Virus record (IMG/VR): IMGVR_UViG_2595698876_000001
Location: 3,428 to 67,427 of that record
Origin: a virus
Lineage: Duplodnaviria; Heunggongvirae; Uroviricota; Caudoviricetes; Herelleviridae
Length of the DNA: 64,000 nt
Direction: 5' to 3' (one strand)
A model generated the notes under the pieces. The model saw only the letters and a list, made by a program, of their open reading frames with translations, searched no databases and was not told the DNA's origin. The first letter of the stretch is position 1; every line of letters begins with the position of its first letter. Below are positions 1 through 11,232 of the stretch, in pieces. Position numbers and translations under genes: made by a program.

Positions 1-86
1 TACTCACGGATATTTGTTATACCTTGTGTGAATTTCCACGCTGACACAATGAATATAGTTGCAAGTATTAAGTATATTAGAGTCAT
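1..86 (-). CDS. small membrane protein, runs off window edge
   Basis: ATG at 84-86 overlaps upstream stop (ATGA); MTLIYLILATIFIVSAWKF hydrophobic start. Confidence 0.5.
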   Translation of the reverse strand, partial: MTLIYLILATIFIVSAWKFTQGITNIRE

Positions 87-283
87 CGCCATTCGTCATC
101 CTCCTCCCAGTAGTATAATCGTGTGATAGAATCGAATAAAATTAAGTCCGGGTCATCTTCTACCTTTACAAGCGCAGATACTACACTATCTGTTGTAAAC
201 GTAATATCTGATAATCCACCTGTTGGGTAAAACTCCGGAATATCGAATATCCAGTATCTATGTTTTAAATTAACTTCTTCCAT
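83..283 (-). CDS. hypothetical protein (66 aa)
   Basis: ORF track; SD (AAGGAG) upstream; packed operon. Confidence 0.7.
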   Translation of the reverse strand: MEEVNLKHRYWIFDIPEFYPTGGLSDITFTTDSVVSALVKVEDDPDLILFDSITRLYYWEEDDEWR

Positions 284-295
284 ATGTATCTCTCC

Positions 296-736
296 TTATC
301 CCCAGTATCGGTTTCCTAATTTATCGAAGTATGCGCGTGTGTTTTTATCATAGTCGTTGATAAACCCATAGATAGTCTTTCTACCTAACTCATATGTATA
401 GAAACGCCCTTTATCATCTACGTGCAGGTGGTACTTATGCTTCTTAAGTATCTTAGGGTTCTTTTTGGATTTACCTATCATATCCCATATAGATAGTGCT
501 GTACCGTTATTCTCTTTCTTAAGCTTTTGTAGTTTCTTCTGTAGTCTGTAGTTACCTAACACCGTTGTATGGTATGTGTGCTTAATGTTGATTAAGGTAA
601 CTGTATGGAATGACGTATCTAAGTCCTCAAGACCTCTATAAAACGCTACTGCATCTTTGATTGGTTCATTAATTATCTTTTCTGCTTTTGTTCCTCTAAA
701 ATTATGAATCTGTCTTGTTCGTGTATGTCTTGTCAT
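296..736 (-). CDS. MTRH-family protein A (146 aa)
   Basis: AGGAGG SD; N-terminus MTRHTRTRQ; LDTSF motif shared with paralogues. Confidence 0.8.
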   Translation of the reverse strand: MTRHTRTRQIHNFRGTKAEKIINEPIKDAVAFYRGLEDLDTSFHTVTLINIKHTYHTTVLGNYRLQKKLQKLKKENNGTALSIWDMIGKSKKNPKILKKHKYHLHVDDKGRFYTYELGRKTIYGFINDYDKNTRAYFDKLGNRYWG

Positions 737-748
737 TATAATTCCCTC

Positions 749-928
749 CTAATGTGTGAACATATAATCGATATAACCTACTATGTAAAGTATAGATATG
801 AGAAAGCAGGTGAGTACGATAGCAAAATGAATTATATCGTACTCTTGTGGTCTCTCTACCATGTCTTGCATAGCAACTAATCCTAAAACTAATATAACTA
901 CGAATATTAATAAAGCTATATGTATCAT
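749..928 (-). CDS. 59-aa two-TM membrane protein (not in ORF track)
   Basis: Hand translation MIHIALLIFVVILVLGLVAMQ...YMFTH*; ATGA overlap with upstream gene; fills the gap exactly. Confidence 0.7.
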   Translation of the reverse strand: MIHIALLIFVVILVLGLVAMQDMVERPQEYDIIHFAIVLTCFLISILYIVGYIDYMFTH

Positions 929-1659
929 TGTGCTGCTTCTCTATTCTTCTTATCTATTTGTTTATGCAGATATGCTGTATGTGCATTGTCTTGTGTTGTG
1001 AACAATTGGTCAGGTATGTTATAGCTTTTTCGCGTAATCTCTAGAAGCGTGTTGCAGTCAAATATCTTTGTGTCCCCTTCCGACAGACCAGTTCTATATA
1101 TTGGTGCTGCTGAGAACGCTCCTTCTGTAACACCTAGCACTTTATATTCTGTAGTTGTTGCACCGTATGTGTCGTCACTAGAAGAGTAGTATTTACCGTA
1201 TAGTATCTCTCCGGGCTTCGGCATACCTTTCCAAAACTTATTCTCATAGGTTAACTTCTCTCTATATGAAAATGCTTTCTGTGGGAACTTACTAGCGTCT
1301 TCCTCATCATAATTACCATACGGGATGCGTATCATATCTTCCATAGAGAATCGATAATATTCATATCGAGGGTAATAAGGTAAATTGTGTCTATTGTAAT
1401 CCCTAGCGGTGAATAAACCCTCTTCTATATGCACTTCTATTACTTCAAGTTCACTATACCCTCTGTTTTCTGGGTTCCCTTCATCGTCTGCGTAGTTCAT
1501 GTATACGATATCCCCGATATCAACCGGAGAATCCTTGTATAATGGCTTTACTTCATCCATAAGTAAAACTGGTGGTGACTTTTCGAATGATTCTTGAACC
1601 AGTTCGTCAGAAAATACATTTATAATTCTACCTAGTAAACTTACCACATCGGCACCCAC
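925..1659 (-). CDS. hypothetical protein (244 aa)
   Basis: ORF track; two similar GD/EI(V/L)Y...(L/Y)xVxxVxEG segments suggest tandem small barrels. Confidence 0.7.
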   Translation of the reverse strand: MGADVVSLLGRIINVFSDELVQESFEKSPPVLLMDEVKPLYKDSPVDIGDIVYMNYADDEGNPENRGYSELEVIEVHIEEGLFTARDYNRHNLPYYPRYEYYRFSMEDMIRIPYGNYDEEDASKFPQKAFSYREKLTYENKFWKGMPKPGEILYGKYYSSSDDTYGATTTEYKVLGVTEGAFSAAPIYRTGLSEGDTKIFDCNTLLEITRKSYNIPDQLFTTQDNAHTAYLHKQIDKKNREAAQ

Positions 1660-1898
1660 TCTCTGCTACCGTGTTTTGATTCAATCTCATCCATATATTC
1701 TCGTGTTGTTTCTTCATAGAACTCTTTACTTGCATACTCTACACAATCTACGAATAAGTCATCTAACTCACTATCACTGATTCCTTGCACCATTAACCAC
1801 TCTTCTATGTATGCTTTCTTTTCTCGTGCCTCTGCGAATAATTTAGCTGCTTCCGTAATTGCTCTTTCTACATCGATTGGTAACTTATGTTTTGACAT
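1641..1898 (-). CDS. acidic hypothetical protein (85 aa)
   Basis: ORF track; packed operon. Confidence 0.7.
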   Translation of the reverse strand: MSKHKLPIDVERAITEAAKLFAEAREKKAYIEEWLMVQGISDSELDDLFVDCVEYASKEFYEETTREYMDEIESKHGSREWVPMW

Positions 1899-1899
1899 A

Positions 1900-2070
1900 T
1901 TATTTCCCCCATTGTTCTCTATAGTATAATCGTCTATCTAATTGTTCTTTATATTCTTTTCGCTTCTGGAAAAAGTAAGCTCTCGTATGTAAGTTGTTAT
2001 CTGTCTTGATAAGTTCCGTGAGCATTTCTATCTTCTGTTCTAGCACAATAATATAAGCTGGTTTACCCAT
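1900..2070 (-). CDS. 56-aa hypothetical protein (not in ORF track)
   Basis: Hand translation MGKPAYIIVLEQKIEML...REQWGK*; fills gap between neighbours. Confidence 0.65.
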   Translation of the reverse strand: MGKPAYIIVLEQKIEMLTELIKTDNNLHTRAYFFQKRKEYKEQLDRRLYYREQWGK

Positions 2071-2245
2071 TTTGTTCATCCTCCAGCATCTTCAATATCC
2101 TCCGGTAAGCTCTTAATTCTCCTACCCACCTATTATAACAAGCTATATGAGATTGAGATGTCAATCTTCCTACGTCCTCTTTTACCACTTCTTCTAGACA
2201 CTGGATAGCTAGTTTTATATTCTCAATCACTTTTAGTCCCCCCAA
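2063..2245 (-). CDS. hypothetical protein (60 aa)
   Basis: ORF track; overlapping operon packing. Confidence 0.6.
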   Translation of the reverse strand: MGGLKVIENIKLAIQCLEEVVKEDVGRLTSQSHIACYNRWVGELRAYRRILKMLEDEQNG

Positions 2246-2427
2246 TAATAAGTATCGCTATCCACTACATAAAGACTTAAATTCTCTTTTAACATTTCAA
2301 TAAATTGGTCTTCCAGAACCTGTATGTACTGATATCCTTTATCCGTTTTGATTTCGATACGGATTTCATTATCGAACCCGGTACCTGTTACATTGACATA
2401 TCCGCCCCATAAATCGTTTTTTACCAT
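2233..2427 (-). CDS. hypothetical protein (64 aa)
   Basis: ORF track; AAGGAG SD. Confidence 0.65.
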   Translation of the reverse strand: MVKNDLWGGYVNVTGTGFDNEIRIEIKTDKGYQYIQVLEDQFIEMLKENLSLYVVDSDTYYWGD

Positions 2428-2675
2428 TGTTTTAGCTCCTTTATACGCATGGACTTTCGGTAGTACCCACCTACTGTGAACATAATGTAGTTTAGTACTT
2501 TGGATTTAAGTATAGGTATTCGTACCCATTCAAACTGCTTATCTAGTTCAGAACTATACACGTTTAACTGTTTGTCATCAATAGCTACGTTCGTTCCTTT
2601 CGCGTACATCTTACGTGCTAGTTTCTTGTCCTTTGTTGCTTTAATTAGTTGTTTATTACGTGTATGTTTTGTCAT
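2421..2675 (-). CDS. MTRH-family protein B (84 aa)
   Basis: TAATG coupling; MTKHTRNKQLIK; LDKQFEW and KVLNYIMF motifs. Confidence 0.8.
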   Translation of the reverse strand: MTKHTRNKQLIKATKDKKLARKMYAKGTNVAIDDKQLNVYSSELDKQFEWVRIPILKSKVLNYIMFTVGGYYRKSMRIKELKQW

Positions 2676-2968
2676 TAGTTAAATGACCTCCCTCTCTTAA
2701 CATCTATGTATCTCATACAAGGTATAGTAGATTTCTTCTCCCCTATCTGCAACTCTATCGTAGAAGCGAAGTGTATTCGGTTTTTAGTAACACCGTTTAT
2801 TTTATATCGTACCCACCTAAATGTACGGTCTGTAACTTCCAATCGCTTGCACGACTCTTTAATTGTTAGGTTATACCCTGTAGGATAGTTCCATTTCGCA
2901 AACTTAACATCCTCACCCTGCATCATGTCTAGTTTAATTAGTTGTTTATTACGTGTATGTCTTGTCAT
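2675..2968 (-). CDS. MTRH-family protein C (97 aa)
   Basis: Start moved to ATG 2966-2968 (ATGA overlap); MTRHTRNKQLIK; DRTFRW and KNRIHF motifs. Confidence 0.8.
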   Translation of the reverse strand: MTRHTRNKQLIKLDMMQGEDVKFAKWNYPTGYNLTIKESCKRLEVTDRTFRWVRYKINGVTKNRIHFASTIELQIGEKKSTIPCMRYIDVKRGRSFN

Positions 2969-3237
2969 ACCCAATATCTCTCCAATCTTGAATCACTCTC
3001 ATAACGTTGGTTAAATAGTTTATTATAATCCCCAGAACCATCTTTAAATAGACTTGCAATCATATCTTCACGACGCTTAATATCTCTCTGTAAGTCTTCA
3101 ATTATACCTCGCTGTAAGCTTAGTTTAGCAGTCTTGTCTTCATAGCAGCTCTTACATAGCAACTCGTACCTAAAAGCCATATAAATATCCACGCGGCTTA
3201 CATCTTTATTGCAGCATCCACAACGCAGTTCCATCAC
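2965..3237 (-). CDS. zinc-finger/coiled-coil protein (90 aa)
   Basis: CGCC...CKSC followed by heptad-like segment. Confidence 0.65.
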   Translation of the reverse strand: MMELRCGCCNKDVSRVDIYMAFRYELLCKSCYEDKTAKLSLQRGIIEDLQRDIKRREDMIASLFKDGSGDYNKLFNQRYESDSRLERYWV

Positions 3238-3422
3238 GCATTCCCCTTTTCTCGAATCATAATTGCATGTATAGCTTCTAATACCTGATACGCTAACTCC
3301 TTGTCCCCTTTTAATCGTTCAAACGGTACATCTGCTAAAATTACAATTCCTGCGTACCAGAAGGTGAACCCATCCTCATTTACAGTAAACGAAACTAAAT
3401 CATTTAGTTCTATCATTCTCAC
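3234..3422 (-). CDS. hypothetical protein (62 aa)
   Basis: ORF track; ATGA coupling. Confidence 0.65.
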   Translation of the reverse strand: MRMIELNDLVSFTVNEDGFTFWYAGIVILADVPFERLKGDKELAYQVLEAIHAIMIREKGNA

Positions 3423-3609
3423 TCATCCTCCCTACCGCTATAATTGCCATTTCATATGCAAGCATGGCTCCTAAATACATGCCTCTTTCTAGTATTCTAC
3501 CTTCACGGTCTGTAAAAGTATCGTGGTCTAAATCATCAAATTTCTTTAGGAACCGCTCCTGTCTATCATACTTACGTTCTAGCACCTCTATAAGCTTGTT
3601 AGCGTCCAC
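3400..3609 (-). CDS. hypothetical protein (~69 aa)
   Basis: ORF track 3400..3654; GTG at 3607-3609 preceded by GGAGGA preferred as start. Confidence 0.6.
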   Translation of the reverse strand: MDANKLIEVLERKYDRQERFLKKFDDLDHDTFTDREGRILERGMYLGAMLAYEMAIIAVGRMSENDRTK

Positions 3610-3712
3610 GTTTCTTCCTCCCCTTCTTATCCTCCTTGTATCTTTCACGAGCATACAAGAGGTCTAGTAGGCACCCTATAAGTTCTAATACTAACTCTAT
3701 TAATGTATGCAT
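3599..3712 (-). CDS. 37-aa hydrophobic peptide with basic tail (not in ORF track)
   Basis: Hand translation MHTLIELVLELIGCLLDLLYARERYKEDKKGRKKRGR*; GAGGGG SD 7 nt upstream. Confidence 0.5.
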   Translation of the reverse strand: MHTLIELVLELIGCLLDLLYARERYKEDKKGRKKRGR

Positions 3713-3716
3713 CTCC

Positions 3717-3920
3717 TTACCCCTCTTCTATGATGCCGCTAATTCGCAGTTCTTTATAGAACTCTTCCTTCGGCACGTTGACAACTCCTACTAACTTACC
3801 TTCTTCCACAATACTTATTTCTACTAATCCTGTGGAGTATAAGTCTATATCTACGAAAGTTTCATGGTATGTATCTGTTTCGTCACATATCCGTGCCGAC
3901 TTCTCGATTAGATTCCCCAT
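3717..3920 (-). CDS. hypothetical protein (67 aa)
   Basis: ORF track; start moved to MGNLIEK after AAGGAGG. Confidence 0.65.
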   Translation of the reverse strand: MGNLIEKSARICDETDTYHETFVDIDLYSTGLVEISIVEEGKLVGVVNVPKEEFYKELRISGIIEEG

Positions 3921-4035
3921 CTTGCTCCCTCCTTTCATCCTCGGCATAGATACAAGGGAAGCATATCACCTTGTCATCCCATATTATACCACTACTTACT
4001 AGTTTCCCGCAATCCCAACATTGCTCGACATCCAC
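3883..4035 (-). CDS. 50-aa C4 zinc-finger peptide (not in ORF track)
   Basis: GAGGAGG-7nt-GTG; MDVEQCWDCGK...ICFPC...GTDM*. Confidence 0.65.
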   Translation of the reverse strand: MDVEQCWDCGKLVSSGIIWDDKVICFPCIYAEDERREQDGESNREVGTDM

Positions 4036-4037
4036 TT

Positions 4038-4175
4038 TTATTCCTCCTCTGTTTTCTCGTCGATTCTGTCGATGTAGTCTCCTAGTTGTTCCGATGTAAT
4101 GATATCTGCGTGATATAACTCATATACTGCTAGTGTTAATGCGTGTGCTTTTTCTACTGTAAACAGTTTATCCAT
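4038..4175 (-). CDS. 45-aa acidic peptide (not in ORF track)
   Basis: AAGGAG SD; MDKLFTVEKAHALTLAVY...KTEEE*. Confidence 0.65.
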   Translation of the reverse strand: MDKLFTVEKAHALTLAVYELYHADIITSEQLGDYIDRIDEKTEEE

Positions 4176-4204
4176 AATTTTCTCTCCTTTGTTGGTCATT
4201 TCTA

Positions 4205-4579
4205 TTACAAATCGAAGTCATATAGGTTTTTAATGCGGCTACGGAGTCGGTACAGCTCGTCTAGCTGCGCTTCATACCTAATGTATGTCGTGTACTCGAA
4301 GTGCGTGTGCTGGTCTTCTACGACGTTACGTTCTATGTTCTTCTGCTTACGTTCTTTCGCTTCTATCTCATCCTCGATGTCGAAGATGATGTTAATACTT
4401 GTGTTGTATAAGTGTTCTAACATTTCTAATACCGCTTCCGCCACTACAATCTCTTTGAATGAGTTGTCTTTACGTAGGTAAGGTACTTCGAACTTTCTTC
4501 TCTCTTCAATCATAATTTTCTCGTAATATTCGATTCTACATTCCATTAAGTTTGCAATCTCTTTTACCATTTGTGCCAT
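4205..4579 (-). CDS. hypothetical helical protein (124 aa)
   Basis: ORF track. Confidence 0.7.
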   Translation of the reverse strand: MAQMVKEIANLMECRIEYYEKIMIEERRKFEVPYLRKDNSFKEIVVAEAVLEMLEHLYNTSINIIFDIEDEIEAKERKQKNIERNVVEDQHTHFEYTTYIRYEAQLDELYRLRSRIKNLYDFDL

Positions 4580-4582
4580 AGT

Positions 4583-4840
4583 CTACCATCCTTTCGTTTT
4601 AGCTGCGAAGTGCGTACCATATGTATCTTCATTCCCACCGAACTCTATCATATTATACGTTTTACTTTTAATACCTAGAATATCTCCCCAACCTTCGAAA
4701 TTACGGTGCCATTTAAAAGTTGCATCTAACTCTACCGCTACCATATCTTGTCTCATTCTTTCGATAGTTAGGTTCTTCATACCGCTCCAACTACCTTCAT
4801 TGAGCTTGTCCATTTGTTTGTTACGTGTATGTCTTGTCAT
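4583..4840 (-). CDS. MTRH-family protein D (85 aa)
   Basis: TAATG coupling; MTRHTRNKQM; LDATFKW and KTYNMIEF motifs. Confidence 0.8.
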   Translation of the reverse strand: MTRHTRNKQMDKLNEGSWSGMKNLTIERMRQDMVAVELDATFKWHRNFEGWGDILGIKSKTYNMIEFGGNEDTYGTHFAAKTKGW

Positions 4841-5490
4841 TATAGCTCGTCCTCCCCTAAGTTAATTACGTGTTCTTTAAGGCACTTCGGGGTAACTTCA
4901 TCTGCTCTGATTTCTCGCTGCATCATTTGTTCATTACCGTCTCTATCATCGACAACAAAACGGATTAATAACATCTGGATAAGGTCTGCACATACCGCTT
5001 TCTTATACTGACCTTTAACCTCTGCTAAACGTAAACCGTATTTTACGATATCCCCGGGTACATATTCTTGCTTTCTTCCTACTTTATTGAACGCCAATTT
5101 TATTTTGTGTGAACGGACTTCGTCCTTCTCTAGTTGCACAAAGGAAGTTTTCTCTACATCCATCCAACTTGCAGCTCTATCATCATCCCAGTAAGCAAAA
5201 ACTTTATAACCGTCTTTAATGCTCGTTACCTTGCCTTTGTACGTTTTACCATCTTGTGTAGCTGCTACCCATTGACCAACTTCCGGCACGAATTTATACG
5301 TAGAAAATTCTTTTTCTAACAACCAGTTAAGAGATGCGTTATACTTATGCCACCCTGACGTACCGTTAATATTACTTAATTGCAATTCATCTTTATGCAT
5401 TCTAAATAGTACGTTAGGTGATTTCGTTTCGAAAATAACCTCTCCATCTAGTAAAGCATCAATCGTTTGTTTATTGTTAAGTGTTGTCAT
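4840..5490 (-). CDS. hypothetical protein with SH3/Tudor-like barrels (216 aa)
   Basis: VGQWVAATQDGKTYKGKVTSI and PGDIVKYGLRLAEVKG segments. Confidence 0.65.
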   Translation of the reverse strand: MTTLNNKQTIDALLDGEVIFETKSPNVLFRMHKDELQLSNINGTSGWHKYNASLNWLLEKEFSTYKFVPEVGQWVAATQDGKTYKGKVTSIKDGYKVFAYWDDDRAASWMDVEKTSFVQLEKDEVRSHKIKLAFNKVGRKQEYVPGDIVKYGLRLAEVKGQYKKAVCADLIQMLLIRFVVDDRDGNEQMMQREIRADEVTPKCLKEHVINLGEDEL

Positions 5491-5491
5491 T

Positions 5492-5908
5492 TTAAAGTTC
5501 CCCTTCCATTTTCTTTTTAACTGTTATTTGTATGTATTTCAATTCCGATATAACCATGTTGCATGTAGAGTAATCTAGATAGTCTTCATATAATAAAGTG
5601 CTAACTTTCGCCGCCTTCTCTATATGATTACGCGCTCTAACATTATTACTTATCAGGCTATCTATTAGCTGATTGATTTCTAAGTCCGTTGTTAATTTGC
5701 TAATGTCATATAATAAGAAGTGAAGCTCATCGATACGTTTCTTATGTAGAGATATTTGTTTTAGAATAACTTCCTTATCTCTTAAGCTCCACATGTCTTC
5801 TCCTTCTTTAGCTGCGAACTGTTTCGTTAATACCTTAATGTCAGATTGGATATTAACAACTCTCTCTTTAATTTCTTCTTCCATCGCCACTTTTAACTCG
5901 TCCACCAT
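5492..5908 (-). CDS. hypothetical helical protein (138 aa)
   Basis: AGGAGG SD; first gene after sigmaA-type promoter. Confidence 0.75.
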   Translation of the reverse strand: MVDELKVAMEEEIKERVVNIQSDIKVLTKQFAAKEGEDMWSLRDKEVILKQISLHKKRIDELHFLLYDISKLTTDLEINQLIDSLISNNVRARNHIEKAAKVSTLLYEDYLDYSTCNMVISELKYIQITVKKKMEGEL

Positions 5909-5939
5909 GTTTATCTCCTCCTTGTTATCTTATACCTTT

Positions 5940-5968
5940 ATATTACACTACCATTTACTTAAAGTCAA
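5940..5968 (-). promoter_or_regulatory. sigmaA-type early promoter
   Basis: TTGACT-17-TAATAT. Confidence 0.65.
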
Positions 5969-5997
5969 CAAGTTTTTTAAGAAAAAGAGAGTATTTT

Positions 5998-6222
5998 TTA
6001 CTCTCCTTTGTTATTTTGTCTATAAGCTGCATCTATTTCCTGCCTAGCTTCTATTCTTTTCCATTCCCATGAACGTACAGTCTTCTTCCGTTGACACTTA
6101 GGACAATAAATATGAATCTTCTCTAGATAAGAATATACAACACTTGATGTATCCGGCTCCATTTCTGTTGATACGTAGTGAAAATCATGCTTACAGTTTA
6201 ATATTTTAAATAGACTAAACAT
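5998..6222 (-). CDS. hypothetical protein with Cys/His motif (74 aa)
   Basis: CKH...YCPKC. Confidence 0.65.
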   Translation of the reverse strand: MFSLFKILNCKHDFHYVSTEMEPDTSSVVYSYLEKIHIYCPKCQRKKTVRSWEWKRIEARQEIDAAYRQNNKGE

Positions 6223-6231
6223 TTCAATCCC

Positions 6232-6498
6232 CTACTTCCATGTTTTAATAGTAATACGGCGGAACATTCTAGCTTCAAACGCATTAAACGGTTTAGTATC
6301 GATGAATATTACGTTCGGAACCTTTCCTGCATGCCATTTACGAGGTGATAACCAAGAGAACCCCGTATCTAGGATTCCTATAGCTTTGTACACCTGTCGA
6401 TTCTCTTCAACTGTTGGTGTTTGCAGCATGATACTGTTGATTGTTGCTTGTTTAATAGTTGCCTTGTTTAGTTGTTTGTATCGTACATGTCTAGTCAT
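6232..6498 (-). CDS. MTRH-family protein E (88 aa)
   Basis: TAATG coupling; MTRHVRYKQL; LDTGFSW and KVPNVIFI motifs. Confidence 0.8.
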   Translation of the reverse strand: MTRHVRYKQLNKATIKQATINSIMLQTPTVEENRQVYKAIGILDTGFSWLSPRKWHAGKVPNVIFIDTKPFNAFEARMFRRITIKTWK

Positions 6499-6614
6499 TA
6501 GTATTCTTCCCCTCGTTCTTCTAATTGTTCAATCAGTCTATCAATTTCTACATTTTTCTCATCGATTATGTCGAATAAAGTATCTATCTTTTTTCGAATT
6601 TCGTCACTAGTCAT
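6498..6614 (-). CDS. 38-aa coiled-coil peptide (not in ORF track)
   Basis: TAATG overlaps at both ends; MTSDEIRKKIDTLFDIIDEKNVEIDRLIEQLEERGEEY*. Confidence 0.7.
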   Translation of the reverse strand: MTSDEIRKKIDTLFDIIDEKNVEIDRLIEQLEERGEEY

Positions 6615-6955
6615 TAAAATTCTCCCTCTCCTAAATACGATTCGATTGTTTGTTTCATTTGTTCGTTCTCTTCTTCCAACTCTCCCACTTGTTCTTCCAA
6701 ATCACTTACTTCACCGCATAACTCATCATATGACTCCTCCAACTCTCTCGCTCTAGATTCAAGGTCATCATATTGGTCATCTAGCTCTCGTGCTTGTTCT
6801 TCGATATCTTTCGCTAACTCTTCTAGTTTCTCATACATAACAGTAGATAGATGTTCGAAATTTTCATTAATAAACATTTCTACTAAGTCTCCCATATTAG
6901 TAGTTCGTGATTTAGCTTTATAAACGTCGCAACCATTAATAATTAATCCGTCCAT
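6614..6955 (-). CDS. acidic coiled-coil protein (113 aa)
   Basis: Heptad-rich E/L pattern; TAATG coupling. Confidence 0.75.
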   Translation of the reverse strand: MDGLIINGCDVYKAKSRTTNMGDLVEMFINENFEHLSTVMYEKLEELAKDIEEQARELDDQYDDLESRARELEESYDELCGEVSDLEEQVGELEEENEQMKQTIESYLGEGEF

Positions 6956-7365
6956 TACGCTTGCTCCCCCTTTTTCATCGCATGTCTATACCATAAATTC
7001 TCTACGTATGTCTCTGCTAACTTTCTGTCTCCGGTCTTGATTTCAATCTCCCCAATAAACTCGTCAATCATATTCCGATAGTAATACTTCAAATCTTCTA
7101 GTTCTTGGTTCGCTCTAGATAACTTATTAACCAATTCTTCCATAGAGGCTCCATAGTCCATTACCACTACCCCTTCATTTCGTTCTCGTTCTAGTGTGTC
7201 TTCTAAAACATTAACTCGATTCTGCAATCTATTGTTTTCTGTACGTAAGTCTTTATTCTTTTTCCACATGTCGGATTCACTTTGTCCGATAACCTCACTT
7301 AGCTCTTTTTTAAGAGACTTGTGATTGTTATTTAATACCGTCATTACTAAGTCGTCTGTTCTCAT
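6955..7365 (-). CDS. coiled-coil hypothetical protein (136 aa)
   Basis: ORF track; coupling at both ends. Confidence 0.75.
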   Translation of the reverse strand: MRTDDLVMTVLNNNHKSLKKELSEVIGQSESDMWKKNKDLRTENNRLQNRVNVLEDTLERERNEGVVVMDYGASMEELVNKLSRANQELEDLKYYYRNMIDEFIGEIEIKTGDRKLAETYVENLWYRHAMKKGEQA

Positions 7366-7943
7366 TATGCTTCCTCCTTAAGATTAGCTATTTCTTCTTC
7401 CCAAGCTACAGCTTGTCTTGCGTAATAATCCGCGTAATGTTCGGATTCTTGTAACTTCTTCTCGTAGCATTTGATACGATGTGCTTTCGTATGTTCGTCC
7501 CATTTCTTCTCCACTTCCCACATATCGCGTTGGTTACCTTGATATTTATAGACACCTAGACTCGTAACGACTTCCGCTTCGAAAGCAGGAGCAATCCAGT
7601 CACAACCATTACCGCAGCATCGATTAACCGGGTCGTACCCTTCATCTTCCGGTTTACAATCGCAGTAACCCCACATTCTGTCGTCAGGTAGCAACTTAAT
7701 GTCGTAACGTCGTCCTGTGTCATGGATATACACTTGAATCGTTCCATCTGTATACCCGCCTGTTCTATCCTTGTCATAGTCGATGTCGATACCATGTTCC
7801 TCCACATCTACTAAAAGAGTAGAAAGTACATCTGCATAATCTACCATGTTTTCATAGTGTCGGATAAGCGTTGCCATATCATCCGGTGATTCCCCTAAAA
7901 TAAATTCTTTCAATTTACCAAAAAACTTTTCTCCGAATTGCAT
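7365..7943 (-). CDS. hypothetical protein with Cys cluster (192 aa)
   Basis: WGYCDC...RCCGNGCDW. Confidence 0.75.
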   Translation of the reverse strand: MQFGEKFFGKLKEFILGESPDDMATLIRHYENMVDYADVLSTLLVDVEEHGIDIDYDKDRTGGYTDGTIQVYIHDTGRRYDIKLLPDDRMWGYCDCKPEDEGYDPVNRCCGNGCDWIAPAFEAEVVTSLGVYKYQGNQRDMWEVEKKWDEHTKAHRIKCYEKKLQESEHYADYYARQAVAWEEEIANLKEEA

Positions 7944-8004
7944 AATTCTCGTCCCCCTTGTATATACTCTTAGTAAACAAACTTATTTAATTGTAAGTTA
8001 TGTA

Positions 8005-8163
8005 TTATCTCCTGCTGAACAAACTAGATATGAAGTCTGCTATTGTTATAAGCACCCAAGAAATCCCTAATACGGTACCAAACAAGATTAGTCCTATCGG
8101 GTAGTAGTACCATTTCACATACCCGCTAGGTTTGTACCAATCTTTCAACGGGTTTAACCCCAT
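8005..8163 (-). CDS. 52-aa single-TM protein (not in ORF track)
   Basis: TGATG coupling; MGLNPLKDWYKP...IGLILFGTVLGISWVLITIADFISSLFSRR*. Confidence 0.65.
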   Translation of the reverse strand: MGLNPLKDWYKPSGYVKWYYYPIGLILFGTVLGISWVLITIADFISSLFSRR

Positions 8164-8366
8164 CATCGTTTAGCGTTTTCCTCTATAGTATTATTAATAA
8201 TAGCTGTAATTAAAGTTACACAGAAAGCAGCGAAAACTAGTAGCGATACGACAAGGGGTTTATTATCTACTGCATCCTGATAAAAGTTCCATGCTGTTAC
8301 ACCTAATGCTGCTGATATAATATTACCACTATACTTAATAGCTCTTGTTTTTGTCGTAAGTTTCAT
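8163..8366 (-). CDS. small membrane protein (67 aa)
   Basis: Two hydrophobic segments; AGGAGG SD. Confidence 0.7.
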   Translation of the reverse strand: MKLTTKTRAIKYSGNIISAALGVTAWNFYQDAVDNKPLVVSLLVFAAFCVTLITAIINNTIEENAKR

Positions 8367-8368
8367 AA

Positions 8369-8977
8369 TTAGTTAGCCTCCTTAGTAATAACTTGTCCGT
8401 TTTCTTTTACTGGTGCTGCTTCGTTAAACGCTTCCGTCATAGAAGTAAGTTGTTTTGGTCGGTAGCATCGACTCTCTTGCTTGTTCTTCACTTGTTTAAT
8501 TTGTTCGATGCATTTTTTGAACTCTTTAGACAAGTTCGGGTATTTTACTAGCATAAGTTTTAATGGTTGCGTAGCTTCTTCGAAGTTCTTAGCTCCACGA
8601 CGTTCCTCTGCAATCAGACCAATCTTGTCCCAGTTCGCAGCTTTCTCTTCTATTGTTAATCCCTTCAAGAACTCCGCACCATGATATAAATCTTGTCGAG
8701 CTTTGTCCAATCGACCTACATCGTCGTATGCTTGGTTATGTGATTTAGGGTACTCAACCAGAACTGTACTCATAATCTCCATGTTAGCGATTACTTCTTC
8801 TGTAGAAGCGTATCCTAATGTCATTCCTTCTTCTTCTAACCATGCTTTACCTGATGTCGTTTGCACTTCATCATCTACTAGTTTAAAAGCTTCTTGTAAG
8901 CGCTCTTTCGCTGCTTTCGTCATTTTACCTGCTGTTACCACGTCTTGTAATAAATCTCTCACTTTTTTAAGTTCCAT
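8369..8977 (-). CDS. hypothetical helical protein (202 aa)
   Basis: ORF track. Confidence 0.75.
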   Translation of the reverse strand: MELKKVRDLLQDVVTAGKMTKAAKERLQEAFKLVDDEVQTTSGKAWLEEEGMTLGYASTEEVIANMEIMSTVLVEYPKSHNQAYDDVGRLDKARQDLYHGAEFLKGLTIEEKAANWDKIGLIAEERRGAKNFEEATQPLKLMLVKYPNLSKEFKKCIEQIKQVKNKQESRCYRPKQLTSMTEAFNEAAPVKENGQVITKEAN

Positions 8978-9083
8978 TGTTATGTACCTCTTTCTATTAT
9001 TTTATTTTTTCGTCTTCTATGTATTAATCATGGTGTTCGTTTTATATAGTTACTTTCAACTTATCACCTCCTCTATGAATCTA

Positions 9084-10593: not shown

Positions 10594-10897
10594 TCCAGAT
10601 TCCCTCCTCATCATCTAAATATTCTGCATTAGAATCATCAATGATAATTCCGTTTCGATTCGCTTGCTTAACAAAATCCTCCCAAGAACAGCAACCAGCC
10701 CACTCATCTCCGTATTTAACATCCATCAGTTCTTTTCCATTTAATTCGATACTCATCCACCCATATCTATATCTGCAATATAAGTAGTCCCCGTTGTCTG
10801 TCTTACCTTCGAATTGCGTAGGGCAAGCGAAGCATGTCTGTGATATTTTTTCTAACTTTACGTATCTTTTAAGTTGAGTAAACCTTCTCATCGTCAT
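10586..10897 (-). CDS. hypothetical protein (103 aa)
   Basis: TCFACPTQFEG...YCRYRYG motif. Confidence 0.7.
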   Translation of the reverse strand: MTMRRFTQLKRYVKLEKISQTCFACPTQFEGKTDNGDYLYCRYRYGWMSIELNGKELMDVKYGDEWAGCCSWEDFVKQANRNGIIIDDSNAEYLDDEEGIWND

Positions 10898-11163
10898 TAT
10901 AGTTCCCCTTCCCTATTTAGAATTTTAATTACAGCAACATCAACCGCCTCTAACATATCTTCTACACTAGTAGCTTCGCTTTCTCGTAAATCCTTATGTA
11001 ATAACGCAATTAACGCTTTCGTGATGTTTGAATAGTAACCTACTACCTTGTAATCATGACCTAAAACTTTACCCTCTTTATTCTTCTTCTCATACTTCTC
11101 ATTGATGATAACGTTCATCGGGTCTGACGTAAGCTTGTACTTTTCTCCTACATAAATTTCCAT
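10897..11163 (-). CDS. hypothetical phage protein (88 aa)
   Basis: AGGAGG SD; follows sigmaA-type promoter. Confidence 0.75.
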   Translation of the reverse strand: MEIYVGEKYKLTSDPMNVIINEKYEKKNKEGKVLGHDYKVVGYYSNITKALIALLHKDLRESEATSVEDMLEAVDVAVIKILNREGEL

Positions 11164-11185
11164 TTGTTATCTCCTCCTTGATTTA

Positions 11186-11214
11186 ATATTACTACATTAT
11201 TTACTAAAAGTAAA
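11186..11214 (-). promoter_or_regulatory. sigmaA-type early promoter
   Basis: TTTACT-17-TAATAT. Confidence 0.6.
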
Positions 11215-11232
11215 CAACTTTCTTTAAAAATT

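Follow-up and report, generated by a model that had tools for sequence, protein, structure and literature searches.

Five paralogous genes in the early-type block of a Bacillus cereus-group phage encode small, mostly basic proteins with a conserved N-terminal module

The window analysed here is a stretch of 64,000 nucleotides (bases 3428-67427) of a 165,238-bp phage genome (IMG/VR record IMGVR_UViG_2595698876_000001) whose ends are direct terminal repeats, and near its left end lie five genes whose small protein products all begin with the residues MT(R/K)H(T/V)R..Q. Our comparisons indicate that the five proteins are one family, whose conserved unit is an N-terminal module of about 50 residues with a variable C-terminal part after it. 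The family is already catalogued in the PHROGs database under unknown function and has no characterised relative. We regard the five proteins as putative small basic nucleic-acid-binding early proteins that would use an N-terminal arm, and we give this reading a probability of roughly 0.35. Over its first 7 kb the window shares 94-95% identity with the Bacillus phages Anthos and Juglone and about 82% with B4 and B5S, and because of these identities the phage is assigned to Bequatrovirus (Herelleviridae, Bastillevirinae), a genus whose hosts belong to the B. cereus group.

An N-terminal module common to the five proteins

A preliminary description of this DNA, made from the sequence alone, had listed the five open reading frames (ORFs) with their common start and had described four of them as translationally coupled to upstream genes. 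All five were recovered on the minus strand (Table 1), and the coupling was confirmed by TAATG or ATGA overlaps in four genes, 296-736 being the uncoupled one; the upstream partner of 6232-6498, an ORF of 38 amino acids (aa), was missing from the earlier list. The degenerate start pattern ATGACNMRNCAYRYNMG occurs five times in the window as compared to 0.01 expected from shuffles, and a profile of the five proteins finds only these five places in the whole genome. The weak core that the five proteins were said to share is real, since the Asp and Phe of LDxxF are invariant in all of them, but the core strings had been assigned to the wrong coordinates.

Each of the five proteins strongly matches PHROG 1208, 2487 or 3864 over most of its length and cross-matches the other two groups, and with E values of 1e-20 to 7.5e-50 they are members of these groups. 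PHROGs thus splits the family in three, all labelled 'unknown function', and records neither its N-terminal module nor its copy number nor its host restriction. The residues D, F and W are invariant in an alignment of 26 sequences from which the 146-aa type was left out; in this alignment and in a larger one of 55 sequences the conserved columns are R3, H4, R6, Q9, the N/I of the N.TI motif and again D, F and W. The consensus of the short form, drawn from both alignments, is MTRHTRNRQ-x-K, a loop of variable length, N-x-x-I opening a helix, LDxTFxWxR, a second variable loop, N-x-I-x-F and a last strand. When the first 12 residues, which include the conserved N-terminal tag, were removed, the profiles of the 4583, 2675 and 2421 types still matched each other with an hhalign probability of 82-94%. 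The 6232 type without these residues reached 30-39% with the 4583 and 2675 types and 10% with the 2421 type, and the 146-aa type gave a very weak match to the others. It is because of the PHROG cross-matches, the alignments and these tag-less profile matches that we treat the proteins as a single family with a module of about 50 residues. The preliminary description was right in seeing paralogues whose N-terminal end is conserved and whose remaining part varies more. Its picture of a short conserved peptide on unrelated bodies has to be given up, as the conserved unit comprises about 50 residues instead of 9 and the bodies are related, both in the alignments and in the tag-less comparisons.

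Family members are 52-187 aa long, and in those examined the tag always stands at the extreme N-terminus and is never internal. For the longer members (113-187 aa), the C-terminal part was searched for known domains, and neither a domain nor an informative fusion was detected. The family had not been recognised in the preliminary description, and indeed no characterised family matches it: Pfam, NCBIfam and PADLOC gave no hit near any cut-off (best 14 bits against cut-offs of 22-32), and hmmsearch of the PDB chain sequences with the 55-sequence profile gave no match at E <= 10. A feature search of the ESM Atlas gave no usable match for two of the paralogues. In the literature, the string MTRHTR was found in no relevant paper, and the papers found to mention Bequatrovirus do not treat these genes.

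Table 1. The five family genes and the small ORF next to paralogue 5 (positions in the window; E values for the PHROG match; pI, isoelectric point)
Feature	Positions	Strand	Length (aa)	N-terminal start	Core	PHROG (E)	pI; net charge	Start region	Remarks
Paralogue 1	296-736	-	146	MTRHTRTRQ	LDTSFH	3864 (7.5e-50), cross-matches to 2487 and 1208	10.0; +16	Own GGAGGG Shine-Dalgarno sequence, uncoupled	Long C-terminal extension
Paralogue 2	2421-2675	-	84	MTKHTRNKQL	LDKQFEW	1208 (1.2e-20)	10.2	ATG overlaps TAA of paralogue 3 (TAATG)	
Paralogue 3	2675-2968	-	97	MTRHTRNKQL	TDRTFRW	1208 (1.7e-24)		ATG overlaps TGA of zinc-ribbon-like gene 2965-3237 (ATGA)	
Paralogue 4	4583-4840	-	85	MTRHTRNKQM	LDATFKW	2487 (4.6e-26)		ATG overlaps TAA of gene 4840-5490	NFEGWG subfamily
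Paralogue 5	6232-6498	-	88	MTRHVRYKQL	LDTGFSW	1208 (3e-25)	10.8	ATG overlaps TAA of 38-aa ORF 6498-6614	
Acidic ORF	6498-6614	-	38					TAATG overlap on each side	Bridges gene 6614-6955 to paralogue 5

Host range, orthology and selection

When 1.84 billion representative proteins were searched exhaustively with a profile, only 36 relatives were returned, all of <=132 aa, and the named ones among them come from phages or genomes of the B. cereus group. Among 50,697 phage records, tblastn matched 96, all of Bacillus phages; beyond the Bastillevirinae the matches include the temperate siphoviruses IEBH, PfEFR-4/5, MY192 and LY4. One or two copies were also present in 9 of 71 species genomes of the host genus, presumably in prophages, and a search for relatives with one family protein led to a single B. 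cereus contig. By these searches, only phages and prophages of the B. cereus group carry the family.

The preliminary description had proposed a survey of copy number and synteny with a profile of the family, and this survey gave 4-7 copies in the large myoviruses, 1-2 in temperate siphoviruses and prophages, and orthologues that are syntenic. Among whole records, two Bequatrovirus genomes carry 4-5 copies and three Wphvirus genomes carry 6-7, all located in this early-type block, where some of them form tandem arrays. IEBH and PfEFR-4 have a single copy of 73 aa between the replication genes and the ArpU late regulator, with YopX, dUTPase and small unknown genes as its neighbours, and the start of the IEBH copy is most likely MRH according to the Shine-Dalgarno spacing.

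Positional orthologues of all five paralogues are present in Anthos and B4, and of three of them also in Spock, with identities of 41-100% (for 296-736, 88% to Anthos, 71% to B4 and 66% to Spock). Because each paralogue has such positional orthologues, the duplications are taken to predate the split of these Bequatrovirus species. Identity to the B4 orthologues is 41-71% as compared to about 80% for most neighbouring genes, and several neighbours are equally or more divergent. The ratios of nonsynonymous to synonymous substitution rates (dN/dS) of orthologue pairs are 0.07-0.59, only moderately above those of the neighbours; a spurious overlapping ORF, used as a control, gave values up to 2.3. 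The family genes are under purifying selection. Diversifying selection was ruled out, as all orthologue pairs are below 0.6, and the hypervariable, diversifying family of the preliminary description is not supported by these syntenic orthologues, several neighbours of which diverge as much.

In at least one position the C-terminal part was exchanged: the protein of 2675-2968 and its positional counterpart in B4 (10877-11218) are 69% identical over the N-terminal 54 residues only, and the C-terminal half of one bears no relation to that of the other, a clear example of modules exchanged within the family. Genes 2421-2675 and 2675-2968, which form a tandem pair, have 35 of 36 nucleotides (nt) in common at their starts. 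No other two of the proteins are as similar overall (44% identity over 61 aa), and the near-identical starts therefore fit a more recent duplication or gene conversion.

Predicted function and its alternatives

The median pI of the family is 10.2 and the net charge reaches +16, as compared to a median pI of 4.7 for 31 neighbours in the block, only 2 of which reach 9.5. Family ORFs in seven other phages have pI values that are nearly all between 9.3 and 10.9, with one at 6.8. The module opens at the very first residues of the protein with a basic arm, M-T-R-H-T-R-x-K/R-Q, followed by a predicted short helix, a loop of variable length, a helix capped by N.TI and the LDxTFxWxR strand. In the reading that we favour, the arm and the invariant Asp, Phe, Trp and Arg would together make up one common binding surface for DNA or RNA. 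The C-terminal part after the module, probably rich in beta structure, differs between paralogues and is sometimes exchanged, and it would give each paralogue its own role; the proteins would be made early in infection. Both early expression and nucleic-acid binding are what we infer. Nucleic acid is favoured over a host partner by the strongly positive charge and by the absence of positive selection, and a shared partner is favoured by the invariance of the arm in all paralogues.

An AlphaFold2 (AF2) model of the 4583-4840 protein, based on 55 sequences, has an extended N-terminus, helices at residues 7-13 and 26-35 and a three-stranded sheet (43-46, 63-67 and 76-79), and residues 4 and 25 are each flagged as a one-residue strand or bridge. 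We read these two residues as a bridge that may pair the tag with the N.TI motif, the pairing itself being absent from the model output, and because of this reading the model suggests that the tag is built into the fold and is not a peptide free for docking. The preliminary description had recommended structure prediction and Foldseek, and at the confidence of this model no known fold was found: the best VIA Z score was 2.9, Foldseek against PDB gave E >= 3.3, and the template modelling (TM) score in the ESM Atlas was at most 0.44. Structure searches of AFDB clusters and BFVD returned the family's own members only. A ribbon-helix-helix repressor, in which a dimer-paired beta-strand at the N-terminus comes before two helices with a tight turn between them, was considered as well; Pfam gave no match to that fold, and the two helices of the model are split by a loop of variable length and followed by the sheet.

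Several observations weigh against the assignment as nucleic-acid-binding early proteins. No known DNA- or RNA-binding fold or family matched in the Pfam and structure searches, and the AF2 model is of medium confidence, with a predicted local distance difference test (pLDDT) value of 75.6, a first model from 26 sequences having been too poor for use (pLDDT 60). The NFEGWG subfamily, to which 4583-4840 belongs, is nearly neutral (net +2 for 4583-4840 itself, and pI 6.8 in Anthos). One shared partner, more readily than different DNA sites, would explain why the arm stays invariant across 4-7 paralogues. As for early expression, a promoter and terminator scan gave hits no more numerous than in shuffles, and the contigs from RNA-labelled soil libraries described below cannot show transcription, strand or timing.

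The main alternative, a refined form of the proposal in the preliminary description and only slightly less probable in our estimate, is that the proteins are a host-takeover or anti-defence family, whose module docks on one B. cereus-group-specific host protein, for example RNA polymerase, a factor of replication or division, or part of a defence system, and whose C-terminal parts vary in effector or inhibitory activity. Such docking would agree with a module that hardly varies among all paralogues and across two genera next to C-termini that vary in length (52-187 aa in total) and are replaceable, with the restriction to the phages and prophages of one host group, and with the location among small early-type genes. 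The genes do lie in a left-end run of small, same-strand, tightly coupled genes. On the other hand, the dN/dS values give no sign of positive selection, the orthologues are stable and syntenic, and no known defence or anti-defence family was matched in PADLOC. As a rule, the known phage inhibitors of host enzymes that handle DNA, Ocr and Ugi among them, are acidic and mimic DNA, unlike this family, which is mostly strongly basic.

A bolder proposal, which we consider improbable, is that the MTRH module is an undescribed fold whose free N-terminus (mature X-R-H) anchors the 4-7 early paralogues of a genome to one B. cereus-group-specific target, either a host protein or a nucleic acid, possibly through a metal-binding arm similar to the amino-terminal Cu(II)- and Ni(II)-binding (ATCUN) motif, and that the exchangeable C-terminal parts deliver different activities. 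Taken by itself, a Cu(II)/Ni(II) site of the ATCUN type (free NH2-X-X-His), which as a metal centre beside the basic arm could bind or cleave nucleic acid, is quite improbable. It would account for the His that is third in the predicted mature chain of 94 of 105 distinct sequences (83 MTRH, 7 MRH, 2 MVRH, 1 MSRH and 1 MTKH), in the MTRH and MRH forms alike, as well as for the probable MRH start in IEBH and for a tag that is never internal. However, the position is occupied by Tyr in 7 and by Cys in 1 of the 105 sequences, in genes that are otherwise intact, and Tyr cannot complete an ATCUN site; the mature N-terminus was predicted by the general rule that Met is lost before Thr, Ser, Val or Pro, so that forms lacking this small residue would begin M-R-H, and a structural role of the N-terminus explains the pattern equally.

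That the proteins are internal virion proteins, in which the N-terminus serves as a capsid-targeting sequence and which are packed with the DNA and injected like IPI-IPIII of phage T4, is very unlikely. The parallel is that they are basic, multi-copy and variable and that their extreme N-terminus is conserved. But the genes belong to the minus-strand block of small genes, away from the plus-strand structural genes, and the copy of the temperate relatives, between the replication genes and the ArpU regulator, lies outside the head module. The conserved unit of about 50 residues does not agree with a targeting peptide of this kind either, and no conserved acidic cleavage-type motif, as in a T4-type leader, follows the tag in the 26- and 55-sequence alignments.

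The codons of the first 12 positions were tabulated for 33 family genes of eight phages. Every degenerate tag codon has synonymous variants (ACA/ACT/ACG, CAT/CAC, CGT/CGC/CGA and CAA/CAG), and the single copy of the temperate siphoviruses keeps the tag with AGA where the myoviruses have CGT for the second Arg. Because the synonymous differences occur at every degenerate site and the amino acids are fixed, selection acts on the peptide. A DNA-level origin of the conserved 5' ends, by gene conversion or as a recombination anchor for cassette shuffling, could draw on the near-identical starts of the tandem pair and on the gain and loss of cassettes in the block at stop-start junctions that are short and repeated, with TAATGACTAG flanking the 38-aa ORF on both sides, but the codon table rules it out as the main cause of the tag, the observed C-terminal replacement breaks after about residue 54 and not after the tag, and we hold this explanation to be very improbable.

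The gene block and comparison with known systems

Minus-strand genes extend from base 1 of the window to about 24 kb, in agreement with the GC skew, and the first 12 kb is a dense array of small genes, many of them with stop-start overlaps, which are annotated in the relatives as hypothetical or membrane proteins throughout. Between 34 and 44% of the words sampled from window positions 1-9000 were present in 16 soil libraries labelled metatranscriptomic (2018-2019, many studies), and also in several DNA runs. The four runs examined (three RNA-labelled and one DNA) contain contigs of several related Bequatrovirus strains that cover the whole block, with a word depth of up to several hundred; these contigs may represent transcription, carried-over DNA or a common contaminant.

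The same contigs bear on gene content. Those of all four runs join position 6490 to 6607 via 10 nt that fit both sides, so that the 38-aa ORF 6498-6614, which has TAATGACTAG on both flanks and no counterpart in Anthos, is skipped. The 136-aa gene 6955-7365, which also has no counterpart in Anthos, is skipped likewise (6952 to 7363). Both genes are cassette indels between close relatives, and genes of the block appear to be gained and lost by recombination at short stop-start junctions.

Three small proteins of the block, encoded by 2965-3237, 3883-4035 and 5998-6222, have paired CxxC motifs and are zinc-ribbon-like members of PHROGs of unknown function, and the first of them is translationally coupled to paralogue 2675-2968. 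Gene 6614-6955, which immediately precedes the 38-aa ORF and basic paralogue 6232-6498 (+11), encodes an extremely acidic coiled-coil protein of 113 aa (net -26), and a charge-complementary complex of this protein with the paralogue is conceivable. An Rfam scan at gathering thresholds detected no RNA family, either in the block or anywhere else in the window. A match of the pistol ribozyme on a bequatrovirus genome segment has been reported in a preprint (bioRxiv 10.1101/2022.07.19.500677); because the Rfam scan of the whole window was empty, this element, if present in the studied phage, would lie outside the window.

The large myoviruses of the B. cereus group are developed for biocontrol and for the typing of B. 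cereus and B. anthracis, and nearly all of their early genes are unannotated. The family described in this study is the largest paralogous set in the early block, with 4-7 copies per genome, and temperate phages and prophages of these hosts carry it too. The N-terminus is conserved with unusual strictness, and no known fold was found to match it. Once the target of the arm is found, dozens of 'hypothetical' genes would gain a function together, and a host-specific control point could come to light.

Among known systems, the phi29 regulator p4 is a small basic alpha/beta protein whose first residues, the 'N-hook', themselves contact DNA, and such an arm-to-DNA mechanism may be analogous to the one favoured for the family. 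Kinship with p4 was rejected, with an hhalign probability of 0.1% over 7 aligned columns and with p4 absent from the structure-search matches. The ATCUN N-termini of albumin, histatin-5 and protamine P2 resemble the predicted mature X-R-H of about 90% of the family members and differ in the Tyr or Cys that takes the place of His in 8 of them. The internal proteins of T4 (IPI, IPII and IPIII) are small, mostly basic and variable paralogues with a conserved N-terminal capsid-targeting peptide. The family is like them, by analogy, in its small, mostly basic and variable paralogues with a shared extreme N-terminus; it has no sequence relation to them, its unit comprises about 50 residues, and its genes stand in an early-type block, those of temperate relatives lying away from the head module. 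The Bro-N and KilA-N proteins, found in phages and in large DNA viruses, follow the same logic of architecture, being virus-specific and multi-copy with a conserved N-terminal domain, DNA-binding in their case, and shuffled C-terminal parts. The MTRH module is half the size of theirs, with no Pfam match to Bro-N or KilA-N at E <= 1 and no fold match. If the family is truly a modular effector system, it would be comparable in logic to the T4 internal proteins and to Bro-N, yet unrelated to either.

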